DNA of 64,000 nucleotides from Phycisphaerae bacterium. Lineage in GTDB: Bacteria > Planctomycetota > Phycisphaerae > SM23-33. The position numbers were made by a program, and so were the translations under genes. Each line of letters begins with the position of its first letter. The first letter of the stretch is position 1. The stretch is taken from assembly GCA_011050235.1 (NCBI GenBank), contig DRGC01000051.1, positions 18,333-82,332 on the forward strand, written 5' to 3'. The notes beneath the pieces are model-generated. The model searched no databases. It saw only the letters and a program-made list of their open reading frames with translations, and was not told the DNA's origin. Positions 3,038 through 43,963 of this stretch are shown piece by piece.

Positions 3038-3571
3038 CTACTGGACCGGCGGGATGAGGCCGTTGTCTTTGGAAAAGCTGGCCCGGACGTTCGGGCGGCT
3101 TAGGACCTTGAGCGTGACGACCCCCAGCACGGTCCCCAACGGGAAGAACGCGCAGCTAGCTATCGCCACGAGGTAGCACACCCAGTAGCCGCGCCGCCGC
3201 TTGAGCAGCCAGCCCGAAACGGCCAGGAAAATCAGCCAGACAAGCGTCGCCATCGCGACGAGGGCCGCGAGGATCATGCCCAGGAAGGCGCCCAGGACCA
3301 TGCTGCCGAGGAAAGCGGCCCAGGCGCCCTCCCCATATTGAGGGCCCGACGGGTCCCCCACCACCAGCGCCAGAAAAGCAAGCGCCACTATGGGAAACCA
3401 CAGAACCACCGCGATTGTATCCCCGAAGCCGCTGATCTTGAGACAGACGCCCGCAGCCACTATGGCCAGCAATATCCCAATCGCCAGGCCGTAGTGCCAG
3501 CGTGACAGCAGGTGCAGATGTCGGTTGTCTCGATTCACCGTCCGGTTGCCCCGTCTACAGGCGGCTGTCAT
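3038..3571 (-). CDS. Hypothetical multi-pass membrane protein
   Basis: 177-aa ORF with several hydrophobic helices (LAIGILLAIVAAGV, IVALAFLALVVG, VLGAFLGMILAALVAMATLVWLIFLAVSGWLL). No recognisable catalytic motif. Confidence 0.5.
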   Translation of the reverse strand: MTAACRRGNRTVNRDNRHLHLLSRWHYGLAIGILLAIVAAGVCLKISGFGDTIAVVLWFPIVALAFLALVVGDPSGPQYGEGAWAAFLGSMVLGAFLGMILAALVAMATLVWLIFLAVSGWLLKRRRGYWVCYLVAIASCAFFPLGTVLGVVTLKVLSRPNVRASFSKDNGLIPPVQ

Positions 3572-10562: not shown

Positions 10563-12653
10563 ATGCCAACCCATGGTCCCATCAACCCCGCCTTGCCGAA
10601 GCTGTTTCACGGCGGCGACTATAATCCCGACCAATGGCCCGAAGACATCCGCATCGACGACGTGCGGCTGATGAAGCTGTCGGGCATGAACCTCATGTCG
10701 ACCGGCATCTTCGCCTGGGCTCAGCTCGAGCCCGAAGAAGGCACGTTCGACTGGGCCTGGCTGGATGAGACCTTCGACCGCCTGCACGATGCCGGCGTGT
10801 TCGTGGCGCTGGCCACACCGTCGTCCTCGCCGCCGCACTGGATGGCGGATAAGTATCCCGAGATCCAGGCGGTCTACAAGGACACCCATCGCGGCCTGCC
10901 CGGCGTGCGGCAGGTGTCCTGCCCCACCTCGCCCATCTTTCGGCGCCAGACGCAACGGATCAACCAACTGCTGGCCGAGCGCTATGGCAAGCATCCGGGC
11001 TTGGCGATGTGGCACGTGTCCAACGAGTACGGCCACCTGTGGGACCACTGCTACTGCGATCTCTGCCAGCAGGCGTTCCGCGATTGGCTGGAGAAACGCT
11101 ACGGCGACATCGATACGCTCAACGAGCAGTGGTGGGCGCGGTTCTGGTCGCACACGTTCAACGACTTCTCGCAGATCAACGCGCCCACCGATCACGGCCA
11201 CGTCAACGGCCTGACCGGGCTGATGTTGGACTGGCGACGGTTCTGCTCGACGCAGATCGTGGAGTTCTTCAAGAACGAGTGCACGCCCCTGCGCGAGCTG
11301 ACGCCGGAGGTGCCGATCACGACCAACCTGATGGGCTTTTTCAACGGGCTCGACTACGCCAAGTTCGGCGACGTGCTGGACGTGGTCTCATGGGACAGCT
11401 ACCCCGAGGTCGACGCCGACCCGGCCTTCACCGCCATGGCCCACTGCCTGATGCGGGGCGTCAAACACGGCGACCCGTGGATGTTGATGGAGCAGACGCC
11501 GTCCAGCACGAATTGGCACCGGCACCACCGCCTCAAGCCGCCGGGACTGATGCGGAATGTCTCTCTTCAGGCCGTCGCCCACGGCTCGGACGCGGTGATG
11601 TACTTCCAGTGGCGTCGCTGCCGCGGCGGCCACGAGAAGTTCCACGGGGCCGTCGTCTCGCACGTCGGCCATGAGAACACGCGCGTGTTTCAGGAAGTCG
11701 CTCAGCTCGGCCGCGACCTGGCTGCGCTCTCAGAGCCCGTCGTCGGCACACGGGCGGCCAAGGCCCGGGTGGGCATGCTGTGGGCCGCCGAGAACCGCTG
11801 GGCCGTCGACCTGTCCGCCGGGCCGGGCAAGGACAAGAAGTTCATCGAGACCAAGCTGCGCCACTTCCGATCGGTCTGGAAGCAGAACATTCCCATCGAC
11901 GTGGTCCGCCTGGATGGCGACTGGTCGCAGTATGACATTCTGATTGCGCCGCTTCTGTACATGGTCAAGTCCGGCCGGTTCCCGCTGGCCGGCACACCCG
12001 AAGAACTCCACGCCCGCATCGATGAGGCCGCCAAGATCAACGACTTCGTCGCCGCCGGCGGCACGTTCGTCACCACGCACCTGTCGGGCCTGGTTAACGA
12101 AAGCGACCTGGTCTACGAAGGCGGCTACCCCGGCGCGCTGCGAAAGCTGCTGGGCATCTGGTCGGAAGAGATCGACAACCGCGCCGAAGGCGAAGCGACC
12201 AACGAGATGTGCATCGCGGGCGAGCTGAAACTGCCCAAAGCGTCCTACACGTGCGACCATTACTTCGACCAGATTCACGCCGAGGGCGCCGACGTGCTGG
12301 CCAGCTACGGCAAGAACTGGTACGCGGGCCGGCCGTGCCTGACGCGAAATGCCGTCGGCAAGGGCCAAGCCTACTACGTGGCCACCTGCGCGGACGAGGA
12401 CTTCCTGACCGACTTCTACGGGATGCTGGCCGACGAGAAGGGCATCGAACCGCTCGCCTCCAGCGGCGAGGACGTCGAAGTCCTCCTTCGCGAGGCCGAC
12501 GACCGAAAGCTGCTGTTCGTCATCAACCACAGCGACAGCCAGCGGACGGCCGACCTGGGCAACCAATCCGGAACTGACCTGTTGACCGGCGAGCCCTGCT
12601 CCGGCCAAATCACCCTCGCCTCCTACGCCGTCCGCATCATCAAGATGATCTAG
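10563..12653 (+). CDS. Glycoside hydrolase family 42 beta-galactosidase
   Basis: 696 aa. N-terminal GGDYNPDQWPEDIRIDDVRLMKLSGMNLMSTGIFAWAQLEPEEG, a Cys cluster CYCDLC typical of the GH42 zinc site, and overall GH42 TIM-barrel plus trimerisation/C-terminal domain length. Confidence 0.85.
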   Translation: MPTHGPINPALPKLFHGGDYNPDQWPEDIRIDDVRLMKLSGMNLMSTGIFAWAQLEPEEGTFDWAWLDETFDRLHDAGVFVALATPSSSPPHWMADKYPEIQAVYKDTHRGLPGVRQVSCPTSPIFRRQTQRINQLLAERYGKHPGLAMWHVSNEYGHLWDHCYCDLCQQAFRDWLEKRYGDIDTLNEQWWARFWSHTFNDFSQINAPTDHGHVNGLTGLMLDWRRFCSTQIVEFFKNECTPLRELTPEVPITTNLMGFFNGLDYAKFGDVLDVVSWDSYPEVDADPAFTAMAHCLMRGVKHGDPWMLMEQTPSSTNWHRHHRLKPPGLMRNVSLQAVAHGSDAVMYFQWRRCRGGHEKFHGAVVSHVGHENTRVFQEVAQLGRDLAALSEPVVGTRAAKARVGMLWAAENRWAVDLSAGPGKDKKFIETKLRHFRSVWKQNIPIDVVRLDGDWSQYDILIAPLLYMVKSGRFPLAGTPEELHARIDEAAKINDFVAAGGTFVTTHLSGLVNESDLVYEGGYPGALRKLLGIWSEEIDNRAEGEATNEMCIAGELKLPKASYTCDHYFDQIHAEGADVLASYGKNWYAGRPCLTRNAVGKGQAYYVATCADEDFLTDFYGMLADEKGIEPLASSGEDVEVLLREADDRKLLFVINHSDSQRTADLGNQSGTDLLTGEPCSGQITLASYAVRIIKMI

Positions 12654-12671
12654 ACCCCCACCCCGGCACAT

Positions 12672-13491
12672 GTGATACCTCACGTTGTGAAGTATCGTCT
12701 GATCGCCAGGCGGATGCCCGACGCGCAACGCTTCAACGTTGGCCGCAGCGGGAGCACACGATACCTCATGTCATTAGGTATCGCCCCTTGTGGCGTTCGG
12801 GCCTGTCGGTCGGGCTTGCGCCCGCCGCCGCGCGGAATACCTCACGTCATGAGGTATCACCCAAGCGCCGGGCCGACCCTACGCATGGCGCCTCCGCGAT
12901 CGCAGCAGGAGCACACGATACCTCATGTCATGAGGTATCACCCAACCGCCGGACCGGCCCTACGCCTGGCGCCTCCGCGATCGCAGCAGAAGCACACGAT
13001 ACCTCATGACATGAGGTATCGCTCCCTGCGGCGTTCGGGCCTTTCGGTCGGGCTTGTGCCCGCCGCCGCGCGGAATACCTCACGTCATGAGGTATCACCC
13101 AAGCGCCGGGCCGACCCTACGCATGGCGCCTCCGCAATCGCAGCAGGAGCGCACGATACCTCATGTCATGAGGTATTACCCAAGCGCCGAACCGGCCCTG
13201 CGCATGGCGCCTCCGCAATCGCAGCAGGGGCACACGATACCTCATGTCATGAGGTATCGCCCCCTGCGGCGTTCGGGCCTTTCGGTCGGGCTTGTGCCCG
13301 CCGCCGCGCGGAATACCTCACGTCGTGAGGTATTCGCTGACGTCCGGTCGCGATCAACCTCAATACAACGAGACTGCGCCACTTGAAATGATTGGCGGCT
13401 TGGCCGAGGATACCTCACGTGATGAGGTATCGCGTGGCGGGCCCGAACCAAGCTGCCGCCGAGGCAGACGAGACCTCATGTGGTGAGGTAT
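12672..13491. repeat. Tandem array of 11 copies of a 23-bp near-perfect palindrome (consensus GATACCTCAYGTCATGAGGTATC) with 238-bp higher-order periodicity
   Basis: Copies begin at about 12673, 12760, 12836, 12917, 12998, 13074, 13155, 13236, 13312, 13409 and 13470. Spacings follow a 76/81/81 pattern repeated three times (238-bp units). The spacers themselves recur: two ~58-bp types (acccaagcgccgggccgaccctacgcatggcgcctccgc...) and one ~53-bp type (gcccc(t)tgcggcgttcgggcctttcggtcgggcttgtgcccgccgccgcgcgg). Terminal copies are degenerate. Confidence 0.9.
13409..13491 (+). promoter_or_regulatory. Putative operator/promoter region of the padR-family gene (two palindrome copies at -119 and -58 relative to the ATG at 13528)
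   Basis: Palindromes gatacctcacgtgatgaggtatc (13409..13431) and agacctcatgtggtgaggtatg (13470..13491) lie directly upstream of the PadR ORF. PadR-family repressors typically bind inverted repeats in their own promoter. Confidence 0.4.
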
Positions 13492-13527
13492 GCTCCGGTG
13501 GTCCCGTCCGTTGAAAGGGATGGTGCG

Positions 13528-13854
13528 ATGGCGATGTCGTCGGACTTGATGCGGGCAACGATTGAAATGATGCTTCTGGCCTTACTCAAAGATTCCGCCT
13601 GCCATGGTTATGAATTGGCCAAGCGGGCGCACCGCCGATCGGGAGGGGCGGTGCACTGGCTCGAGGGGTCGTTATACCCGACGTTGCGCCGGCTTCACGA
13701 GAAGGGGATGGTGACGGCCAAGTGGGAAGGCCCGGCGGCCGGGAGAAGACGCAAGGTCTACTCATTGACGGCAAGAGGGCGCCGGGAACTGGTGGTTCGG
13801 GCGGCGGAATGGGCGACCTTCGCCAGAGGGACCAAGAGCATCCTCAGCCAATAG
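13528..13854 (+). CDS. PadR family transcriptional regulator
   Basis: 108 aa. Winged-helix PadR motifs (MLLALLKDSACHGYELAKR...GSLYPTLRRLHEKGMV...KVYSLTARGRREL). The ATG at 13528 is preceded by AAAGGGA about 8 nt upstream; the upstream ORF-track start at 13480 lies inside a palindrome copy. Confidence 0.8.
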   Translation: MAMSSDLMRATIEMMLLALLKDSACHGYELAKRAHRRSGGAVHWLEGSLYPTLRRLHEKGMVTAKWEGPAAGRRRKVYSLTARGRRELVVRAAEWATFARGTKSILSQ

Positions 13855-14065
13855 GGCGATCTTGAACGCATCTTCTGTGCGCCGTGTGCCCCGCTGTGAG
13901 GAGATCTGCATACGAATCAATCATCTTGCCCATCACCCTCAGGCGTGACACAATGCCGCCTTCCTGTCGGTTGAAGGTGTTGTTGGCCGCAGGCGCGGAA
14001 GAGCACAGGACTCCAAGACCATACCTCGGCAGCCGAGGTATTACCAAGCTCGCGAGGACGATAAC

Positions 14066-15055
14066 ATGGAAAAGGTGACGCTCGGACGGACCGGGCTGGA
14101 AGTGCCCAAGTTGGCGATGGGCGGGGCGTGGTGCGCCATCGACCCCGACGGGCAGGAACGTAGCCGCAAGCTGATTCATCGCGCGATGGAGTTCGGCATG
14201 AACTACATCGATACCGCCGCCGGCTACGGCGACAGCGAGGAGGCGATTGGCAACGTCATCAAGGACATCAAAGAGCCGATCATCATTGCCACCAAGCTGG
14301 GCGGGCGGCCGCAGCCGTTCGAGCCGCAGAACATCGATTGTCTGCGAAAGTCGGTCGAGACATCGCTGAAGCTGCTGCACCGCGAGCAGATCGACATCCT
14401 GATGATCCACGAGCCGGACCGACCGGGCGAGTACGACTGGTGGGCCGACCGCGACACCTACTCCGGTCCGGTCACCGACCTGATGGAAGAACTCAAGGAA
14501 AAGGGCACGATCCGCTTCACGGGCCTGGGCGGCACGACGGCCCACGAGTTGGGGCCGATCATCCGCTCGGGCAAGTTCGACGTGGTCCTGACGGCCTTCA
14601 ACTACAGCCTGCTCTGGCGCGAGGCCGCTATCGACGTGATCCCCGCCTGTAAGGAAGTGGGCGCCGGCGTTGTCTCCGCCTCGCCGCTGCAGCAAGGCGG
14701 GCTGGTCGGGCGCTTCGACGACGAAGTCAATAACGGCGCGCTGTGGCTGAGTAAGCCGCGTCGCGAGCAGTACAAGGCCCTCTACGCCTACCTCGACGAG
14801 ATCGGCATGGACATCATCGAATGCGCCCTGCGGTTCGTGGTCTCCAATCCGGACATCGACTGCATAATGAACGGCGCCCGCGACGTCGAGCAACTCGAGC
14901 AGAACGTGGCCGCCTTCGAGAAAGGTCCCCTGCCGGCTGACATCCTGGCCCGGCTGGACGACATCCACGCGATGGTGCCCTTCCGCCCGTTCGAAGAGCC
15001 CTTCGGCATCCACTTTACCGGCCCGAAGCACCGCTCGGGCCCGGGATCCGCATAA
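14066..15055 (+). CDS. Aldo/keto reductase family oxidoreductase
   Basis: AKR signature regions: GLEVPKLAMGG, YIDTAAGYGDSEEAIG, ILMIHEPD. 329 aa. Confidence 0.85.
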   Translation: MEKVTLGRTGLEVPKLAMGGAWCAIDPDGQERSRKLIHRAMEFGMNYIDTAAGYGDSEEAIGNVIKDIKEPIIIATKLGGRPQPFEPQNIDCLRKSVETSLKLLHREQIDILMIHEPDRPGEYDWWADRDTYSGPVTDLMEELKEKGTIRFTGLGGTTAHELGPIIRSGKFDVVLTAFNYSLLWREAAIDVIPACKEVGAGVVSASPLQQGGLVGRFDDEVNNGALWLSKPRREQYKALYAYLDEIGMDIIECALRFVVSNPDIDCIMNGARDVEQLEQNVAAFEKGPLPADILARLDDIHAMVPFRPFEEPFGIHFTGPKHRSGPGSA

Positions 15056-16089
15056 TGAAAGCTGCCCTACTGGAACAACTCGGCTCGCTGACGGTTCGCG
15101 AGGTCGCCGACCCCGAGGTCGGCCCCTATGGCGCGCTGTGTCAGATGCTCTACGGCGCCACCTGCACCGGCACGGACCTGCACCTGATCGAAGGCCGCGT
15201 CGACTGGGCCATCACCGCCGCACCGACCATCATCGGCCACGAGAGCATCGGCCGGGTCATCGACGTCGGCAATAAGGTCCGCAACTTGAAGGTCGGCGAT
15301 ATGGTCACCCGCGTCGGCGCCCCGCCGGCCGCCGACGGCAGCTACAGCAGCACGTGGGGGGGCTTTGCCGAGCTGGGCGTGGCGTGCGACCACTGGGCTA
15401 TGAAAGAAGACGGCGTCGCGGAAGACCAGTGGTCCGGCGCGACGGTCAACCAGATCATCCCGGCCGAGTTCGACCCGCGGGCGTGCACGATGATGACCAC
15501 GTGGCGCGAGACGCTCAGCTACATCACGCGCATGGGCCTCGCGACCGGCAACCGGGTGTTGATCCTGGGCTCGGGCGGGGTGGGGCTGGCCTTCGCGGCC
15601 CACGCGGCCAACCTGGGCGCGGTGCGGGTGGCCATGTGCGGCAGCGCCGCCCGGAAAGAGGTCGCCAAACGTGCGGGCGTGACCGACTTCTATGACTACA
15701 AGGCCGACGGGGTCGGCTGGATCATCGCCAGCATGTGCCCGGAGGGCTTCGATATCGTCATCGATGCGGTCGGCTCGCAGGAGACCATCGACCTGGCGCT
15801 GTTCAACGTGATGCAGGGCGGATCGGTCGGCATCTACGGCATCGACGAGATGGGCAAGACCACCGTCGACCCCGACAAGGCCCGCGCCGAGTTCACCGAA
15901 TTCGACGGCGGCTACGACGAGGCCGAAACGCACGAACGGGTTGTCGGTTTCATGCAGACCGGCAAACTCGACGCCGGCATTTGGCTGGACCTGGACACCA
16001 CCTACCCGTTGGACGAGATCAACGCCGCCTTCGACGCCGTGCGAAATCGCCAGTGCGTCAAAGCCCTGGTCAAGCTGTCGGATGGCTAG
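15055..16089 (+). CDS. Zinc-type alcohol dehydrogenase / MDR superfamily oxidoreductase
   Basis: GHESIGRVIDVG (catalytic zinc ligands) and GxGxxG nucleotide motif LILGSGGVGLAFA. The start overlaps the AKR stop (TAATG), suggesting a padR-adjacent two-gene operon. Confidence 0.8.
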   Translation: MKAALLEQLGSLTVREVADPEVGPYGALCQMLYGATCTGTDLHLIEGRVDWAITAAPTIIGHESIGRVIDVGNKVRNLKVGDMVTRVGAPPAADGSYSSTWGGFAELGVACDHWAMKEDGVAEDQWSGATVNQIIPAEFDPRACTMMTTWRETLSYITRMGLATGNRVLILGSGGVGLAFAAHAANLGAVRVAMCGSAARKEVAKRAGVTDFYDYKADGVGWIIASMCPEGFDIVIDAVGSQETIDLALFNVMQGGSVGIYGIDEMGKTTVDPDKARAEFTEFDGGYDEAETHERVVGFMQTGKLDAGIWLDLDTTYPLDEINAAFDAVRNRQCVKALVKLSDG

Positions 16090-16172: not shown

Positions 16173-16250
16173 GGGGTGCCACGCTTTTCGTAAGAAAAGC
16201 GTGGCTGGCTCGCGGCGCTGCACGCTTCTGCAAGCAGAAGCGTGGCACCC
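16173..16250. repeat. REP-like double-hairpin element (family GGGTGCCACGCTT...AAGCGTGGCACCC), copy 1
   Basis: gggtgccacgcttttcgtaagaaaagcgtggc...cacgcttctgcaagcagaagcgtggcaccc. Two inner hairpins are enclosed by an outer 13-bp inverted repeat. Sits between convergent genes. Confidence 0.7.
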
Positions 16251-16263
16251 AAGACCGAGTGTT

Positions 16264-17460
16264 CTAGCTCATCAGCAGCTCCCGCATGACCCACTCGTAC
16301 TCGCGGGCGATGCTGTCGGCCAGGTCGTCGGCCCGCAGCTCATCCGGCAGGACGGCGAAGGTGTAGGTTTCGATCTCCAGGTGTTCGGTCGCCCCGGCCC
16401 GCAGTGCGGCGGCCAGCTCGCCGGTCAGCAGAGAGTTGGTCGACGCCAACTCGCCCGACCCCTCGAAAAACAGCGGCACGTGGAAGTGCACTCGCCACGT
16501 CTGTGACGACTGGTCGGTATCGGCATCCAATGCATCCGGCAGGTCCGGGTAAGAGACCACCTCCCCGCCGGCCCCGCGCGATTTGACTTGGTGGAGATAG
16601 ACCGGGTCGCAGAACTCCCGCAATTGGCTGCGAGCGGCGGCGTTTGCCCGGGCCTCCAGTGCGGCGCTGAGATGCACCTTGCCGATCCGCACGCCGGCGG
16701 CGGCCAGCGACACCAGGGAGGCGGCCAGGTCCTCAAACTCCACCGCCAGGTGCGACGTATCGAAACACACGCCCACATGTCGGCCGATGACCCGGGCCGC
16801 ATCGGCCTGGTCCAGGCCGTGTCGATCGGCCAGATAGCGGCAGCCGTGCTCGCGCAGCGGACCATTAAAGAACGCGATCGTCTCGTCGGTGTTCTCGATA
16901 AAGCAGTCCGGCTCGGGCTCCAGGGCCAGGACAATCTCCCGCCCGCTCCGGCGGGCAATCGCATCCAGCCGAGCGGCCGTGTCGCATAGCATCTCGACCA
17001 TTTGTCGAACATCGTCGTCGCCCTGAATCCACGGCTTGTACGAGCCCGGCACGGTCGAAATGCTGCCGGTGACGCCTTCGGGAAGCAGTTGGGCCAGGAC
17101 TTCGGCCATGGCGATGGTGTAGTCGCGCCGCTCGGCCGTTCGCCAGTCGGGCGCATAGACGCTGTCCTTGACGGCGGTATCATGAAACTGGCCGTACGGG
17201 AAGCCGTTGATCGTGAAGACGTAGAGATTCTCACGATCCAGGAACATCCGGAACTCACTTAGCGCAGCCGCCTCGGCCAACTGCCCGGCCGCCAGTGCAC
17301 TGAGGCGCAGCCCCAGGCCAAACGGCTTGTCGGCAGCGACGCGGTCCCGCACGGCGATAGCGAACGTGCGGATGGCGGCGACGTTCTCGGCCCAACTCTC
17401 GCCGGGATGAACGTTCAGACAATAGGTCAGGTGCACCGGCGGGTCGGACTGAATCCTCAT
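16264..17460 (-). CDS. Xylose isomerase-like TIM-barrel protein (EboE-like sugar phosphate isomerase/epimerase)
   Basis: 398 aa. Last gene of an operon whose other members match ebo-cluster families. A 4-bp start/stop overlap with the DHQS-like gene (17457..17460) indicates coupling. Assigned by context and size, so confidence is moderate. Confidence 0.55.
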   Translation of the reverse strand: MRIQSDPPVHLTYCLNVHPGESWAENVAAIRTFAIAVRDRVAADKPFGLGLRLSALAAGQLAEAAALSEFRMFLDRENLYVFTINGFPYGQFHDTAVKDSVYAPDWRTAERRDYTIAMAEVLAQLLPEGVTGSISTVPGSYKPWIQGDDDVRQMVEMLCDTAARLDAIARRSGREIVLALEPEPDCFIENTDETIAFFNGPLREHGCRYLADRHGLDQADAARVIGRHVGVCFDTSHLAVEFEDLAASLVSLAAAGVRIGKVHLSAALEARANAAARSQLREFCDPVYLHQVKSRGAGGEVVSYPDLPDALDADTDQSSQTWRVHFHVPLFFEGSGELASTNSLLTGELAAALRAGATEHLEIETYTFAVLPDELRADDLADSIAREYEWVMRELLMS

Positions 17461-26357: not shown

Positions 26358-26436
26358 GGGTGCCACGCTTCTGCTCGCAGAAGCGTGCTGAGTATGAGAA
26401 CGCGAGCACGCTTTCACAAGTGAAAGCGTGGCACCC
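26358..26436. repeat. REP-like double-hairpin element, copy 2
   Basis: gggtgccacgcttctgctcgcagaagcgtgctgagtatgagaacgcgagcacgctttcacaagtgaaagcgtggcaccc. Confidence 0.7.
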
Positions 26437-27569: not shown

Positions 27570-27589
27570 GGCACGTCCTTTCGATGCTC

Positions 27590-27790
27590 GGGCCCCGAAG
27601 GGGTCCAAGTCAGTAGCCGGGGGCGTCAGCCCCCGGACCAAGTGGCCCGGCTCGATGAGCCCCGACGGGGCGACAGTAGGGCCAGTCTGCTGCGTCACTG
27701 TCGCCCCTTCGGGGCTCACCTCTATTGTGCATCCTCCTCCGGCGGCTTACGCCGCCGGCTACTCACTATCGGCCCTTCGGGCCTACACCG
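27590..27790. repeat. Multi-hairpin structured intergenic element, copy B (homologous to 2770..3035)
   Basis: tagccgggggcgtcagcccccgga; gagccccgacggggcgacag...ctgtcgccccttcggggct; ccggcggcttacgccgccgg; cggcccttcgggcc. Same order as copy A. Stem sequences differ but pairing is preserved (ccggggcc/ggccccgg versus ccggcggc/gccgccgg). Confidence 0.7.
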
Positions 27791-37684: not shown

Positions 37685-37769
37685 GGGTGCCACGCTTTTG
37701 CGTTGTCTGCAAAAGCGTGCAGGGCCCCGAATTGAAATACACGCTTCTGCAAGCAGAAGCGTGGCACCC
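37685..37769. repeat. REP-like double-hairpin element, copy 3
   Basis: gggtgccacgcttttgcgttgtctgcaaaagcgtgcagggccccgaattgaaatacacgcttctgcaagcagaagcgtggcaccc. Lies between convergent genes. Confidence 0.7.
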
Positions 37770-41749: not shown

Positions 41750-41850
41750 CCGCCCAGCAAACGGACGCGACGTCCCGCACGGCCCGTTGCCCCGGAAAAG
41801 AACAAGACGCTGGATCGGCCCATGGGGCTGCCCAGCGTCTTGCGTTAAAA

Positions 41851-41941
41851 CGGAGAGGGCGGGATTCGAACCCGCGGATCGAGGAATACCCCGATCAACG
41901 GTTTAGCAAACCGTCGCATTCAGCCACTCTGCCACCTCTCC
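41851..41941 (-). tRNA. tRNA-Ser (anticodon GCU), class II with long variable arm; CCA not encoded
   Basis: Reverse complement reads GGAGAGGTGGCAGAGTGGCTGAATGCGACGGTTTGCTAAACCGTTGATCGGGGTATTCCTCGATCCGCGGGTTCGAATCCCGCCCTCTCCG. There is a 7-bp acceptor stem, anticodon stem ACGGT/ACCGT with loop TTGCTAA, and T-loop GGTTCGAATCC. Confidence 0.85.
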
Positions 41942-42142
41942 GGGTGGGGTGCGGCGAACGGGTACCTTATCGAGCCGGCGTGGGTGTGTCAAGGTGAGGA
42001 ACGGGGACATCTTCTTAGCCCATCCCTGCGACGAGCCCTATATCCCTCATCCTTGCCCGACCTTTGCCGAAGATAATGCTTTGGGCGCCATCCCGACGTA
42101 CGTCGGGACTCACAGAAGGGTGCGATCTGCAAGGGGCGAGGC

Positions 42143-42175
42143 GGGCACGCTTCCACGAGTGGAAGCGTGGCACCC
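42143..42175. repeat. REP-like element, single-hairpin copy
   Basis: gggcacgcttccacgagtggaagcgtggcaccc. Confidence 0.5.
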
Positions 42176-43867: not shown

Positions 43868-43885
43868 CGTAGGCCTTTCTCGCTG

Positions 43886-43963
43886 GGTGGCACGGCTTGC
43901 TCGCAAGCCGTGTGGAACGCCGTGCATCGACGAACACGGCTTGCAAGCAAGCCGTGCCACCCA
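43886..43963. repeat. REP-like double-hairpin element, variant copy (CACGGCTT stem)
   Basis: gggtggcacggcttgctcgcaagccgtgtggaacgccgtgcatcgacgaacacggcttgcaagcaagccgtgccaccc. Confidence 0.6.

Follow-up and report, generated by a model that had tools for sequence, protein, structure and literature searches.

Organization of the padR locus

In the 64-kb stretch of DNA analysed here (hereafter the window), which comes from an uncultured marine-sediment bacterium, 11 copies of a palindrome, ATACCTC-N7-GAGGTAT, lie at 12674-13492, between a gene for a GH42 beta-galactosidase and a 108-aa padR gene. The array had been reported in a preliminary description of this DNA and was confirmed by our consensus scans. 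The flanking genes are GH42, PadR, an aldo/keto reductase and a Zn-dependent alcohol dehydrogenase (Zn-ADH), in agreement with that description. The features of the locus are listed below; palindromes and the tandem repeat are given without strand.

10563..12653, plus strand: GH42 beta-galactosidase gene, directly upstream of the array and co-directional
12674..12696: palindrome copy 1 (GATACCTCACGTTGTGAAGTATC), one arm mismatch; its 21-nt core begins 21 nt past the GH42 stop codon
12744..13333: tandem repeat with a 238-bp unit (three palindromes and three spacers), about 2.4-2.5 copies, 93% identity, no indels (TRF)
12760..12782: palindrome copy 2, the first of 238-bp unit 1; one arm mismatch, ATTAGG
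12836..12858: palindrome copy 3
12917..12939: palindrome copy 4, exact 23-bp consensus
12998..13020: palindrome copy 5, exact consensus on the minus strand; central base A
13074..13096: palindrome copy 6
13155..13177: palindrome copy 7
13236..13258: palindrome copy 8, exact consensus
13312..13334: palindrome copy 9, centre ACGTCGT, fully symmetric; end of the 238-bp repeat
13409..13431: palindrome copy 10, at -119 from the padR ATG; lineage L008 has a site at the equivalent position (-116)
13470..13492: palindrome copy 11 (GAGACCTCATGTGGTGAGGTATG), promoter-proximal, at -58 from the padR ATG; one arm mismatch
13528..13854, plus strand: padR, encoding a 108-aa LmrR-like PadR subfamily-2 regulator (PF03551), the predicted binder of the palindromes
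13926..13954, plus strand: putative promoter-like block TTGCCC-N17-(TGa)CACAAT, kept in three lineages 5' of the aldo/keto reductase gene
14020..14042: twelfth palindrome (CATACCTCGGCAGCCGAGGTATT; 21-nt form ATACCTCGGCAGCCGAGGTAT at 14021-14041), 45 nt before the aldo/keto reductase ATG (14066)
14066..15055, plus strand: aldo/keto reductase gene, probable PadR target; syntenic in L003 and L031
15055..16089, plus strand: Zn-ADH gene, overlapping the reductase stop codon; same operon

A scan with the 23-bp consensus, allowing up to three mismatches, matched 10 of the array sites (18 matches when both strands are counted). With the 19-nt core TACCTC-N7-GAGGTA and up to two mismatches, all 11 array copies were recovered together with the twelfth site, at 14022. 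The chance expectations obtained from shuffled sequence were 0.00 for the 23-bp consensus and 0.85 for the 19-nt core, so that 12 sites were seen where at most 0.85 were expected. No further copies were found in the rest of the 64-kb window, and half-sites elsewhere in it occurred at chance level (1 and 2 against 2.4 expected per strand). The repeat had been described as an almost perfect 23-bp palindrome present 11 times. This held for the copy number; the exact consensus on one strand is restricted to the copies starting at 12917, 12998 and 13236, and the others carry one to three mismatches. One arm is mutated in both outermost copies and in the promoter-proximal one. The positions given earlier for the last two copies, -119 and -58 from the padR start, are correct when translation begins at the ATG at 13528 (MAMSSDL...), a start that is supported by the orthologues.

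The twelfth palindrome is situated about 60 nt downstream of the promoter-like block at 13926..13954, which was not called by the consensus promoter scan. At this distance from the block, the site would act as a roadblock or RNA hairpin and not by polymerase exclusion. It occurs in the reductase leader of three lineages, and its perfect 10-bp dyad is retained despite three changes in both arms. Such symmetric changes hint at selection on structure or at templated mutation. The recurrence of the leader palindrome supports the earlier proposal that the reductase and Zn-ADH genes belong to the PadR-controlled set, and both are likely, judging from this arrangement, to be co-regulated by PadR.

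We also scanned the region for other signals. No sigma-70 promoters and no intrinsic terminators were called by the consensus scan of 12500-14200, and an Rfam scan of 11500-15000 with a permissive E-value returned only sub-threshold miRNA/sRNA noise. When folded as RNA, the whole array gave a z of -10.9, which is trivial since the palindromes pair with each other. A separate, dispersed family of REP-like hairpins, CACGCTT-N10-AAGCGTGGCACCC, is present in the window in six full copies.

Tandem repeat structure of the array

The array copies are spaced 86, 76, 81, 81, 76, 81, 81, 76, 97 and 61 bp apart. The preliminary description had claimed a superunit of exactly 238 bp, repeated three times. 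The composition of three palindromes and three spacers was found as described, whereas TRF gave about 2.4-2.5 copies at 93% identity in place of three exact ones. Between units 1 and 2 there are 17 differences in 238 positions, and homology extends into the third unit for only about 99-114 bp. An amplification in tandem is therefore upheld, but it is not a very recent one, given the 17 differences between the first two units. Within the 238-bp unit we found an 81-bp sub-repeat (74 of 81 positions identical), which represents an older duplication. The spacers are, as had been noted, not unique, since they are repeated within the array. The best reading of these repeats is that the array was built by an 81-bp duplication followed by an approximately 2.4-fold amplification of the 238-bp unit. 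Between units 1 and 2, substitutions fall at 3 of 69 palindrome positions and 14 of 169 spacer positions, which is the expected direction at counts too small to carry meaning. The window comes from a short-read metagenome assembly (LCGC14), in which the exact tandem copy number may be mis-assembled.

The open reading frames that cross the array (12672-13328 and 13054-13386) had no Pfam match, and neither 238 nor 76 is a multiple of three; the repeat is therefore non-coding, as had been proposed. The spacing of the sites showed no 10.5-bp phasing, an argument against rigid cooperative looping.

The palindrome and padR occur together in related lineages

The palindrome adjoins padR in 9 of 9 lineages from which orthologues were recovered (66-89% identity; P0002-P0012), in at least three gene neighbourhoods. 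A comparison of copy number among relatives had been suggested beforehand. The nine lineages have 1, 1, 1, 4, 4, 4, 5, at least 6 and, in the window, 11 upstream copies. The closest orthologue, P0002 (89% identity), is on a 564-bp contig that begins 34 bp before the ATG and is uninformative on copy number. In five of the nine lineages the nearest site is located at -55 to -58 from the padR ATG. Upstream of padR a co-directional GH42 gene is found in the window, L003, L008 and L160, and a divergent GFO/IDH/MocA oxidoreductase gene in L007 and L033. Downstream there is either the reductase/ADH pair or a convergent gene, and the palindrome is present either way. Across the loci, the neighbours comprise GH42, aldo/keto reductase, Zn-ADH, GFO/IDH/MocA oxidoreductases and a methyltransferase.

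The position of individual sites is also shared between lineages. The 21-nt distance of the first site from the GH42 stop codon recurs in L003 and L008, where the intervening sequence is not conserved, and in L034, L038 and L007 copies are found 25-57 nt past the padR stop codon, before the convergent gene. Most lineages have sites on both sides of padR, with a spacing that clusters at 75-88 bp; in the cluster-bearing lineages, the sites upstream of padR are typically 60-120 bp apart. One upstream site is present in three lineages and suffices there, so the extra sites are not essential. The other six have 4-11 upstream sites with unrelated spacers, which suggests that the extra sites are selected and not just a recent accident. 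The comparison shows that the upstream region in this PadR clade typically holds a cluster of putative sites, each apparently under selection on its own, and the window, with its 11 predicted sites, is the extreme case among the lineages with several. L033 contains an independent 162-bp duplication that spans two palindromes. Comparison of the loci shows that these presumptive operator clusters grow and shrink through tandem duplication of units of palindrome and spacer.

Outside this clade, PadR homologues at 35-50% identity had no arrays and sit in PadR+HAAS operons. The homologues P0014, P0019 and P0021 (about 50% identity) had no array of a different palindrome either, and likewise form PadR+HAAS operons. 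A second metagenome scan, with the PadR alignment, recovered only homologues of 34-43% identity and no clade members. A scan of metagenome contigs with the 21-mer gave no match in a collection that does not include these samples, since L003, a JGI contig, has a matching site. Among 185,579 GTDB species genomes, a search for the palindrome gave only two matches. In a Planctomycetaceae MAG (CAYRZU01) there are two single copies, one of them between convergent genes, with no padR in the 8 kb of DNA around each. Viral contigs scanned with a 14-base core yielded single matches only, consistent with chance, and no arrays. The plasmid collection yielded no close PadR, identities staying under 40%, nor did its DNA match the array, and a literature search on the palindrome motif returned nothing relevant.

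Conservation of the palindrome arms

From 46 sites we derived the consensus ATACCTCR-N5-YGAGGTAT, with about 32 bits per site. Conservation is 91-100% at arm positions 1-7 and 15-21, and at least 96% of the sites have positions 1-8 paired with 14-21. Positions 9-13 are variable, and positions 9 and 10 are paired in only 57-59% of the sites. On the plus strand there was no preference for G.U (11 G.U against 19 A.C). The spacers could not be aligned between lineages, and in L008 the centres differ between the copies of one locus while the arms are perfect. Constant arms between diverged centres and spacers indicate selection on the arms and speak against both gene conversion and the maintenance of a hairpin. 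P0012, the most divergent lineage, reads ATACCTAG...CTAGGTAT in all three copies, so that both arms are changed symmetrically, and the sites of L007 show a CTCG...CGAG co-variation. Two further observations concern the spacers: those of the window are homologous to the spacers of L003, and the distal spacers of several lineages are C-rich and G-poor on the padR sense strand.

The palindrome has the properties by which an autoregulatory operator is recognized, namely co-occurrence with the regulator gene, a conserved start-proximal position and a motif that is kept against diverged flanks. The canonical PadR box consists of inverted ATGT/ACAT half-sites 8 bp apart (10 bp in lmrCD). The consensus of the 46 sites does not match ATGT-N8-ACAT, and only its overall length (21-23 bp) fits the span of about 22 bp known for LmrR.

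The PadR protein

The protein encoded by padR matched Pfam PF03551 with E = 1.9e-21 and 76.2 bits (cutoff 27). Its best NCBIfam model is TIGR03433 padR_acidobact, at 91.5 bits, which is below the cutoff of 101.8. Sequence matches in the PDB were 5DYM and LmrR. The AlphaFold2 model (pLDDT 88.4) has helices at 5-20, 27-37, 46-58 and 82-107 and strands at 62-67 and 75-80. This gives the order helix1-helix2-helix3, a strand-strand wing and one long C-terminal helix, with no separate C-terminal domain. The best structural matches found by Foldseek were LmrR, 1XMA and 9QBC (TM 0.75-0.88). On the basis of Pfam match, fold and signature residues, this PadR is an LmrR-like member of PadR subfamily 2.

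DNA binding in the PadR family involves a Tyr/Tyr/Lys signature, which in B. subtilis PadR is Y20, Y42 and K67 (PMC5728393). Residues Y28 (GYEL), Y50 (LYP), K76 (RKVY), W66 and W95 are invariant in 12 orthologues, and Y28, Y50 and K76 align with the Tyr/Tyr/Lys of 5DYM and LmrR. From these motifs we infer that Y28, Y50 and K76 are the counterparts of the three B. subtilis residues. W66 and W95 occupy the columns of Trp67 and Trp96 in LmrR. The residues of the recognition helix (positions 52-54) showed no evident correlation with the palindrome centres specific to each lineage.

A predicted PadR operator cluster and alternative explanations

In our view the palindromes are probably the cognate operators of the adjacent LmrR-like PadR subfamily-2 repressor, kept by selection and variable in copy number. 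An amplified cluster of PadR operators had been put forward in the preliminary description, and this idea is supported by the co-occurrence with orthologues, the conserved arms, the symmetric co-variation and the absence of the palindrome elsewhere in the window. The outcome that had been set against it, a generic repeat scattered without association to padR genes, was not seen within the 64-kb window, and the palindrome travels with padR in 9/9 lineages.

According to this model, one PadR dimer would bind per site through its two winged helix-turn-helix domains and would read the 8-bp inverted arms, ATACCTCR and YGAGGTAT, which enclose a non-specific centre of 5 bp. The site about 57 nt 5' of the start codon would overlap the padR core promoter, resulting in negative autoregulation; -35/-10-like matches weakly suggest such an overlap. 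Through the leader site, the aldo/keto reductase/Zn-ADH operon would be part of the PadR regulon. A ligand, probably planar and hydrophobic, would release the repressor by binding at the conserved Trp pair. The additional high-affinity sites may titrate PadR, in that they would hold a local pool of repressor, raise and buffer total PadR and sharpen the threshold of induction, and/or they may make repression stronger, perhaps cooperatively, and act as a roadblock to transcripts that run on from GH42 upstream. Several copies lie away from promoters, past stop codons or between convergent genes, and a simple promoter-operator model leaves these copies at gene 3' ends unexplained. It is conceivable, at a rather low probability, that the operator array is more than a switch. 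It would then be either an evolvable titration rheostat, with the dosage of repressor and the threshold of induction determined by the number of copies (1 to 11 or more), or a multi-dimer nucleoprotein resembling that of AspA, which would also end transcription, or insulate it, at the 3' ends of genes. The nucleoprotein version would account for the sites 21-57 nt past stop codons and on both sides of padR.

Copies 21-57 nt past stop codons or between convergent genes also fit an element that forms structure in RNA or single-stranded DNA. Its palindromes would be transcribed as hairpins (behind GH42 and padR as 3'-end stabilizers or elements resembling terminators, ahead of padR and the reductase gene as leader hairpins) or extruded as cruciforms, and the link to padR would reflect cis-regulation by structure or by another factor. 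In line with this are the 21-nt distance to the GH42 stop codon, kept where the intervening sequence is not, the 10-bp dyad of the reductase leader that persists through changes in both arms, the many perfect 10-bp arms, the fully symmetric centres that some lineages have of their own, such as CAGCTGCTG, and the C-rich, G-poor distal spacers. However, pairing is conserved for the outer 8 bp only, positions 9 and 10 being unpaired in about 42% of the sites, and on the sense strand G.U is no more frequent than A.C. Moreover, neither a T-run nor a terminator call was found in the consensus scan, no Rfam match exceeded the threshold, and in L007 and L033 the arrays lie in a divergent promoter region, where transcription through the array is not expected. 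In all lineages it is the sequence of the arms, not merely their complementarity, that is conserved, which is the signature of base-specific recognition by a protein, and we regard a structure-forming element as improbable. A protein-based alternative would be a higher-order nucleoprotein platform, for which PadR nucleates on the palindromes and spreads or bridges over 0.3-0.9 kb. The complex would separate GH42 from the padR operon, as an insulator or a roadblock, or would make up a structural or segregation locus. AspA binds a 23-bp palindrome that precedes its own gene and extends from there over more than 200 bp (PMC5120986), the PadR-subfamily-2-like DNA-binding domain of StbA binds repeat arrays (10.1101/2022.04.29.490116), and one operator can take two LmrR dimers (PMC5428041); the sites that flank padR in most lineages and their 75-88-bp spacing point in the same direction. 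Nevertheless, no ParA, ParB or ParM-like partner gene was present at any locus, the genes nearby have a metabolic and chromosomal look, the plasmid collection has no close relative, AspA was absent from the sequence matches with solved structures and from the 50 structural matches listed, and three lineages have a single upstream site. The chance that the array is such a platform is accordingly small. A centromere of a partition cassette, to which an array beside a gene for a small DNA-binding protein bears some likeness, was rejected, as there are no parA, parM or parB partners among the neighbouring genes and no match in the plasmid collection.

A selfish or neutral repeat of the REP/BIME, MITE or CRISPR kind that by chance lies beside padR is the least credible of the explanations and highly improbable. 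The layout superficially resembles BIME arrays, with palindromes, few spacer types and tandem amplification, the 21-23-bp repeats with spacers of about 55-60 bp look CRISPR-like, and one MAG has single copies away from padR. Yet the palindrome occupies orthologous positions in nine lineages with its arms under selection, it is not dispersed in the 64 kb, only two matches were obtained among the 185,579 species genomes, and the viral contigs had single matches at chance level. REP/BIME elements were rejected because of this absence of copies beyond the padR locus in 64 kb and the two GTDB matches. Among the ORFs scanned in the window there was no RAYT (IS200/IS605-like) transposase, and those scanned up to about 6-8 kb away on each side included no cas genes and no genes of transposase or RAYT type. 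MITEs and other TIR elements were rejected in the absence of dispersed copies in the window and of target-site duplications. The preliminary description had mentioned a cluster of miniature TIR-flanked elements as a second possibility; this is not supported, for the same two reasons and because of the orthologous placement in nine lineages with diverged spacers. A CRISPR array was rejected in view of the fully palindromic repeat, of spacers of 38-99 nt that recur in the window and have homologues among the L003 spacers, and of the lack of cas domains in the ORFs scanned up to about 6-8 kb either side.

Comparison with known systems

LmrR of Lactococcus lactis, which represses its own gene and the neighbouring target operon through inverted repeats, with a dimer that spans about 22 bp (PMC5428041), is similar to the PadR of the window. 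Each of the two proteins has a single domain of about 110 aa, made up of a wHTH and a long C-terminal dimerisation helix, and both tryptophans are shared (W66/W95 = Trp67/Trp96). LmrR entries lead the structural matches, at TM 0.75-0.85. The sequence identity is only about 25%, however, and the sites differ, with an ATGT-N8/10-ACAT box for LmrR and ATACCTCR-N5-YGAGGTAT for the clade of the window. LmrR, the autorepressor of lmrR and lmrCD, has one operator per promoter and targets an efflux pump, whereas the window array and its relatives have 4-11 well-separated, high-information sites upstream, and the putative targets are NAD(P) oxidoreductases in a glycan-degradation neighbourhood.

In the B. 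subtilis padC promoter there are two palindromic operators, not an array, and the window locus has no phenolic acid decarboxylase gene. The B. subtilis PadR, of subfamily 1, is a two-domain protein of about 180 aa with phenolic acids in an interdomain pocket, in contrast to the single-domain PadR studied here. Its dimer reads the palindrome symmetrically via the wHTH, and its Tyr/Tyr/Lys signature has invariant counterparts in the window protein (PMC5728393). AspA of the Sulfolobus plasmid pNOB8 is likewise a small PadR-like wHTH dimer with a 23-bp palindrome upstream of its own gene, and forms a multi-dimer complex of more than 200 bp (PMC5120986, PMC5728393). It depends on one nucleation site and spreading and acts in segregation from the plasmid aspA-parB-parA operon, whereas the sites of the window locus are discrete and numerous, par genes are absent, and the surroundings are metabolic and look chromosomal. 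StbA of R388, also a small PadR-subfamily-2-like HTH protein, binds cooperatively to the ten-repeat array stbS beside its own gene and represses transcription (10.1101/2022.04.29.490116). In stbS, 9-bp direct repeats lie 2 bp apart on a plasmid and control segregation and conjugation, unlike the 21-23-bp palindromes 60-120 bp apart in the window.

The BIME/REP arrays of enterobacteria share with our locus the extragenic palindromes, the few spacer types, the tandem amplification and the location of some copies just past stop codons. REPs, on the other hand, occur in hundreds of dispersed copies per genome with no link to a particular regulator, while the window palindrome is confined to the padR locus and travels with padR. 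Decoys, which are additional high-affinity sites competing for a negatively autoregulated transcription factor, are known to raise the expression of this factor and of its targets (PMC7505660; see also PMC8599769). The decoys of such studies were engineered or scattered over the genome, whereas here a natural tandem array lies directly upstream of padR. To our knowledge, a natural, conserved and tandemly expandable decoy array directly upstream of the factor's own gene has not been described previously.

Significance

The usual account of a bacterial one-component repressor has one or two operators per promoter. In a family of uncultured marine bacteria that are probably Planctomycetota, 4-11 highly specific sites beside a repressor gene appear to be kept under selection, with repeated tandem expansion. 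From the comparison of sequences, the locus is very probably a familiar self-regulating repressor switch in an unusual, expandable multi-site form. Such arrays are at risk of being annotated automatically as CRISPR arrays or as repetitive proteins. The confidently predicted pair of site and protein is compact and highly specific, and could become an orthogonal repressor/operator part. If the extra sites titrate or concentrate the repressor, the locus would be a natural case of decoy-site tuning for an autoregulated factor, a principle that has so far been studied mainly with synthetic constructs. Unequal recombination between operators would then, if titration holds true, offer these bacteria a simple route for evolving regulatory dosage.

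Palindrome array upstream of padR

The GH42 gene ends with TAG at 12651-12653 and is followed by 874 bp of non-coding DNA and then by a small gene with the start ATGGCGATG at 13528. The aldo/keto reductase and zinc alcohol dehydrogenase genes that the preliminary description had placed downstream of this gene, padR, are both present:

10563-12653, GH42 beta-galactosidase
13528-13854 (+), padR, PadR-family protein of 108 aa (Pfam)
14066-15055, aldo/keto reductase
15055-16089, Zn-dependent alcohol dehydrogenase (ADH), its start overlapping the reductase stop codon

The window as a whole is a neighbourhood for glycan utilisation (GH2, GH42, GH95, GH38, sulfatases, several GFO/IDH/MocA oxidoreductases and phosphodiesterase-type enzymes). 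It also carries a glycyl-radical enzyme gene (172-1902) and one tRNA-Ser (41850-41942).

When the window was searched with the 23-bp consensus (up to 3 mismatches), 10 sites were found, all in the 874-bp stretch and none elsewhere; shuffles are expected to give none. The core TACCTC-N7-GAGGTA (up to 2 mismatches) recovered all eleven described copies, confirming the array with minor corrections, as well as a twelfth copy, TACCTCGGCAGCCGAGGTA, at about 14021-14022 and one chance-like match at 3157 (0.85 expected). Start-to-start spacings in the array are 86, 76, 81, 81, 76, 81, 81, 76, 97 and 61 bp. Tandem Repeats Finder reported a 238-bp period (12744-13333, 2.5 copies, 93% matches, no indels) and an additional 81-bp sub-period. 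Units 1 and 2 differ in register at 17 of 238 positions, homology of the third unit stops at the palindrome 13312-13334, and two 81-bp modules within one unit are identical at 74 of 81 positions. The superunit is a tandem repeat, but not the three exact copies first described. The 81-bp modules lie inside the 238-bp units, so the array took two or more steps to grow: 81 bp were duplicated first, and the three-palindrome unit that this created was amplified later. Amplification had been proposed as recent, but the divergence of about 7% between units shows that its last round was not very recent. The 238- and 76-bp periods are not multiples of 3 and ORFs crossing the array had no Pfam match, so the repeat is non-coding and the ORF track misleading, as had been noted.

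Conservation of the palindrome in orthologous loci

A protein search returned 11 close PadR relatives with 66-89% identity, every other match being at 50% or below. DNA was recovered around 9 of the 11, and upstream sequence was readable in nine lineages, the window included. The same palindrome adjoins padR in all nine, whereas homologues at 35-50% identity belong to PadR+HAAS-type operons without such arrays.

Palindromes at padR loci (orthologue in brackets): neighbours; upstream sites; other sites
Window: GH42-padR-reductase-ADH; 11; 1 before the reductase gene
L003 (P0007): GH42-padR-reductase-ADH, syntenic; 4; 1 before the reductase gene
L008-L010 (P0004): GH42 upstream, convergent methyltransferase downstream; 5; none
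L031 (P0003): upstream gene beyond contig end; at least 6; 1 before the next gene
L033/L034 (P0006): divergent GFO/IDH/MocA oxidoreductase upstream; 4; 1, 25 nt past the padR stop
L007 (P0010): divergent GFO/IDH/MocA oxidoreductase upstream; 4; 1, 57 nt past the stop
L038 (P0011): divergent gene without Pfam match upstream; 1; 1 downstream of padR
L160 (P0008): GH42 upstream; 1; none
L035-L037 (P0012): 1; 2 downstream of padR

The promoter-proximal site starts at -57, -56, -55, -58 and -57 relative to the ATG in five lineages; in the remaining four it starts at -72, -72, -104 and -112. In the window, where the array is largest, this site (13470-13492) is imperfect (AGACCTC for ATACCTC); it is perfect in the other eight lineages. 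In aligned upstream regions, the islands of identity are the palindromes and the ribosome-binding/start region, and the remainder is unalignable.

Site statistics were pooled over 46 palindromes. Positions 1-7 and 15-21 are 91-100% conserved. At least 96% of sites have positions 1-8 paired with 14-21, whereas just 57-59% have pairing at positions 9 and 10. Within locus L008 alone the centres read ACATGAT, ATATGGT, ACGTCAT, ATGTGAT and ACGTTGT, while the arms are perfect in four of five sites and the fifth has one mismatch. In P0012, the most divergent lineage, both arms are altered symmetrically (ATACCTA...TAGGTAT) in all three sites, and the sites of L007 read CTCG...CGAG. The pooled pattern indicates base-specific selection acting on a pair of 8-bp half-sites separated by about 13 bp, as a symmetric dimeric DNA-binding protein produces. 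Neither whole-repeat gene conversion nor long-hairpin maintenance would yield conserved arms with variable centres. Comparison of the loci shows that the palindrome is under selection, specific to this clade and tied to padR.

The PadR protein

The protein is the same, residue for residue, as one encoded on a 141-kb contig of the LCGC14 marine-sediment metagenome. It scored 76 bits against Pfam PadR, and its profile matches among solved structures were 5DYM, LmrR and other subfamily-2 members. Its AlphaFold2 model (pLDDT 88) has a helix-helix-helix-strand-strand-long helix fold, with LmrR structures as best matches (TM 0.75-0.88). Two tryptophans, W66 and W95, are invariant; in the alignment they match LmrR Trp67 and Trp96, of which Trp96 forms the drug-binding clamp at the LmrR dimer interface. 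Y28, Y50 and K76 are also invariant, and their alignment columns are those of the family's Tyr/Tyr/Lys signature for DNA binding (PMC5728393). LmrR is a repressor both of its own gene and of an adjacent operon, its dimer spanning about 22 bp (PMC5428041), which fits the 21-23-bp palindrome found here; the site differs, however, from the canonical PadR box ATGT-N8-ACAT.

Array expansion in other lineages

In L033 (602-900), spacers 1 and 3 of a four-palindrome array are near-identical, which indicates an independent 162-bp two-palindrome tandem duplication, so array growth recurs in the clade. Some window spacers are homologous to those of L003, the 53-nt type-B spacer resembling L003 spacer 1. 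Overall, 19 of 28 site intervals fall at 75-88 bp, which may simply go back to an ancestral unit of about 80 bp that was duplicated; the intervals lack helical phasing, which argues against rigid looping between neighbouring sites. The comparison shows that the cluster varies in copy number through tandem duplication.

On the padR sense strand, the distal spacers are rich in C and poor in both G and T (GC skew -0.2 to -0.56), a skew that promoter-proximal spacers do not share:

window 12858-13235
L003 3303-3462
L007 5871-6019
L031 52-224

A locus-specific element or a generic repeat

A generic REP, MITE or CRISPR element is highly improbable. In the window outside the padR locus, half-sites occur near chance (ATACCTC once, GAGGTAT twice; about 2.4 expected per strand), and TACCT-Nx-AGGTA with any other spacing was absent. 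No cas, transposase or partition genes were seen among the ORFs scanned near the array. A truly dispersed family is present instead, with six full copies at 16-42 kb of a REP-like hairpin, CACGCTT-N10-AAGCGTG followed by a GCACCC tail:

16174-16203 (-)
16221-16250 (+)
26358-26387 (-)
26407-26436 (+)
37740-37769 (+)
42146-42175 (+)
43884-43963, related pair

The genome thus has a REP-like family of its own, and the PadR palindrome does not belong to it. Two of its occurrences are head-to-head inverted doublets (REPIN-like), one of which (16174-16250) lies between the convergent ADH gene and a gene at 16264-17460; the loop-proximal stem varies between copies by compensatory substitutions. A further repeat of about 200 bp has two copies (2775-2976 and 27588-27790, 74-81% identical; repeat families D6, D12, I1). 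It abounds in GC hairpins, CCGGGGCCTGACGGCCCCGG among them, and could represent a small mobile or non-coding element.

Within the window the palindrome was confined to the padR locus. In a collection of 185,579 species the 21-mer matched only one Planctomycetaceae MAG (CAYRZU01), with lone full-length copies at L001 2018-2038 and L002 770-790, which makes a planctomycete the probable source of the window. These lie 38 and 27 nt past stop codons, one between convergent histidine-kinase and DUF1295 genes, and no padR was found in the 8 kb around each.

Promoter-like sequences and proposed regulation

PadR dimers are predicted to bind each palindrome, and the site at about -57 would overlap the padR promoter. 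In several lineages its left arm adjoins a -35-like CTGACA or AGACG, and its right arm contains the start of a TATnnn -10-like hexamer; a consensus promoter scan called no promoter there. Between padR and the reductase gene, the block ATCAATCATCTTGCC-N-CGTGACACAATGCCGCCT (13915-13960) is strongly conserved among L003, L031 and the window. It resembles a -35/extended -10 promoter, TTGCCC-N17-TGaCACAAT (13926-13954; TTGCCC 13926-13931, CACAAT 13949-13954), which would place the 14021 palindrome in the transcribed leader of the reductase gene. The palindrome, in turn, would bring the reductase/ADH operon into the PadR regulon. Lying about 60 nt downstream of the promoter-like block, this palindrome would act as a roadblock rather than by polymerase exclusion. 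As far as sequence comparison reaches, the proposal of an amplified PadR operator cluster is supported as the main reading.

Role of the extra sites

Selection maintains extra sites in six of the nine lineages, which makes neutrality unlikely. Speculatively, they could titrate or locally concentrate the auto-repressed factor; decoy sites increase the expression of a factor of this kind and of the genes it targets (PMC7505660). It is equally speculative that they make repression stronger or cooperative, that they control the divergently transcribed oxidoreductase gene of L007 and L033, or that they block GH42 read-through. The first core lies exactly 21 nt past the GH42 stop in three lineages (window 12654-12674, L003 3261-3281, L008 880-900) although those 21 nt have diverged, which suggests a positional constraint at the GH42 3' end.

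That interval fits the operator reading poorly and leaves some room for a function at the 3' ends of transcripts or as a structure. So do the lone MAG copies past stop codons, the palindromes 25-57 nt past the padR stop before a convergent gene (L034, L038, L007), and the window's reductase-leader site, where three changes in both arms set it apart from its orthologues with a perfect 10-bp dyad kept. Sense-strand G.U is not in excess over A.C in the pooled sites (11 vs 19), so a sense-strand RNA hairpin is not favoured. We consider a function at 3' ends or as a structure unlikely. A higher-order AspA- or StbA-like nucleoprotein (PMC5120986; 10.1101/2022.04.29.490116) is likewise doubtful.

In the searchable literature we found neither this motif nor PadR-associated arrays of this kind described. 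Both kinds of component, a PadR subfamily-2 autorepressor and a palindromic operator, are known. The unusual part is a conserved, apparently selected and tandemly expandable cluster of up to 11 high-information predicted operators, 60-120 bp apart, directly upstream of the regulator gene.
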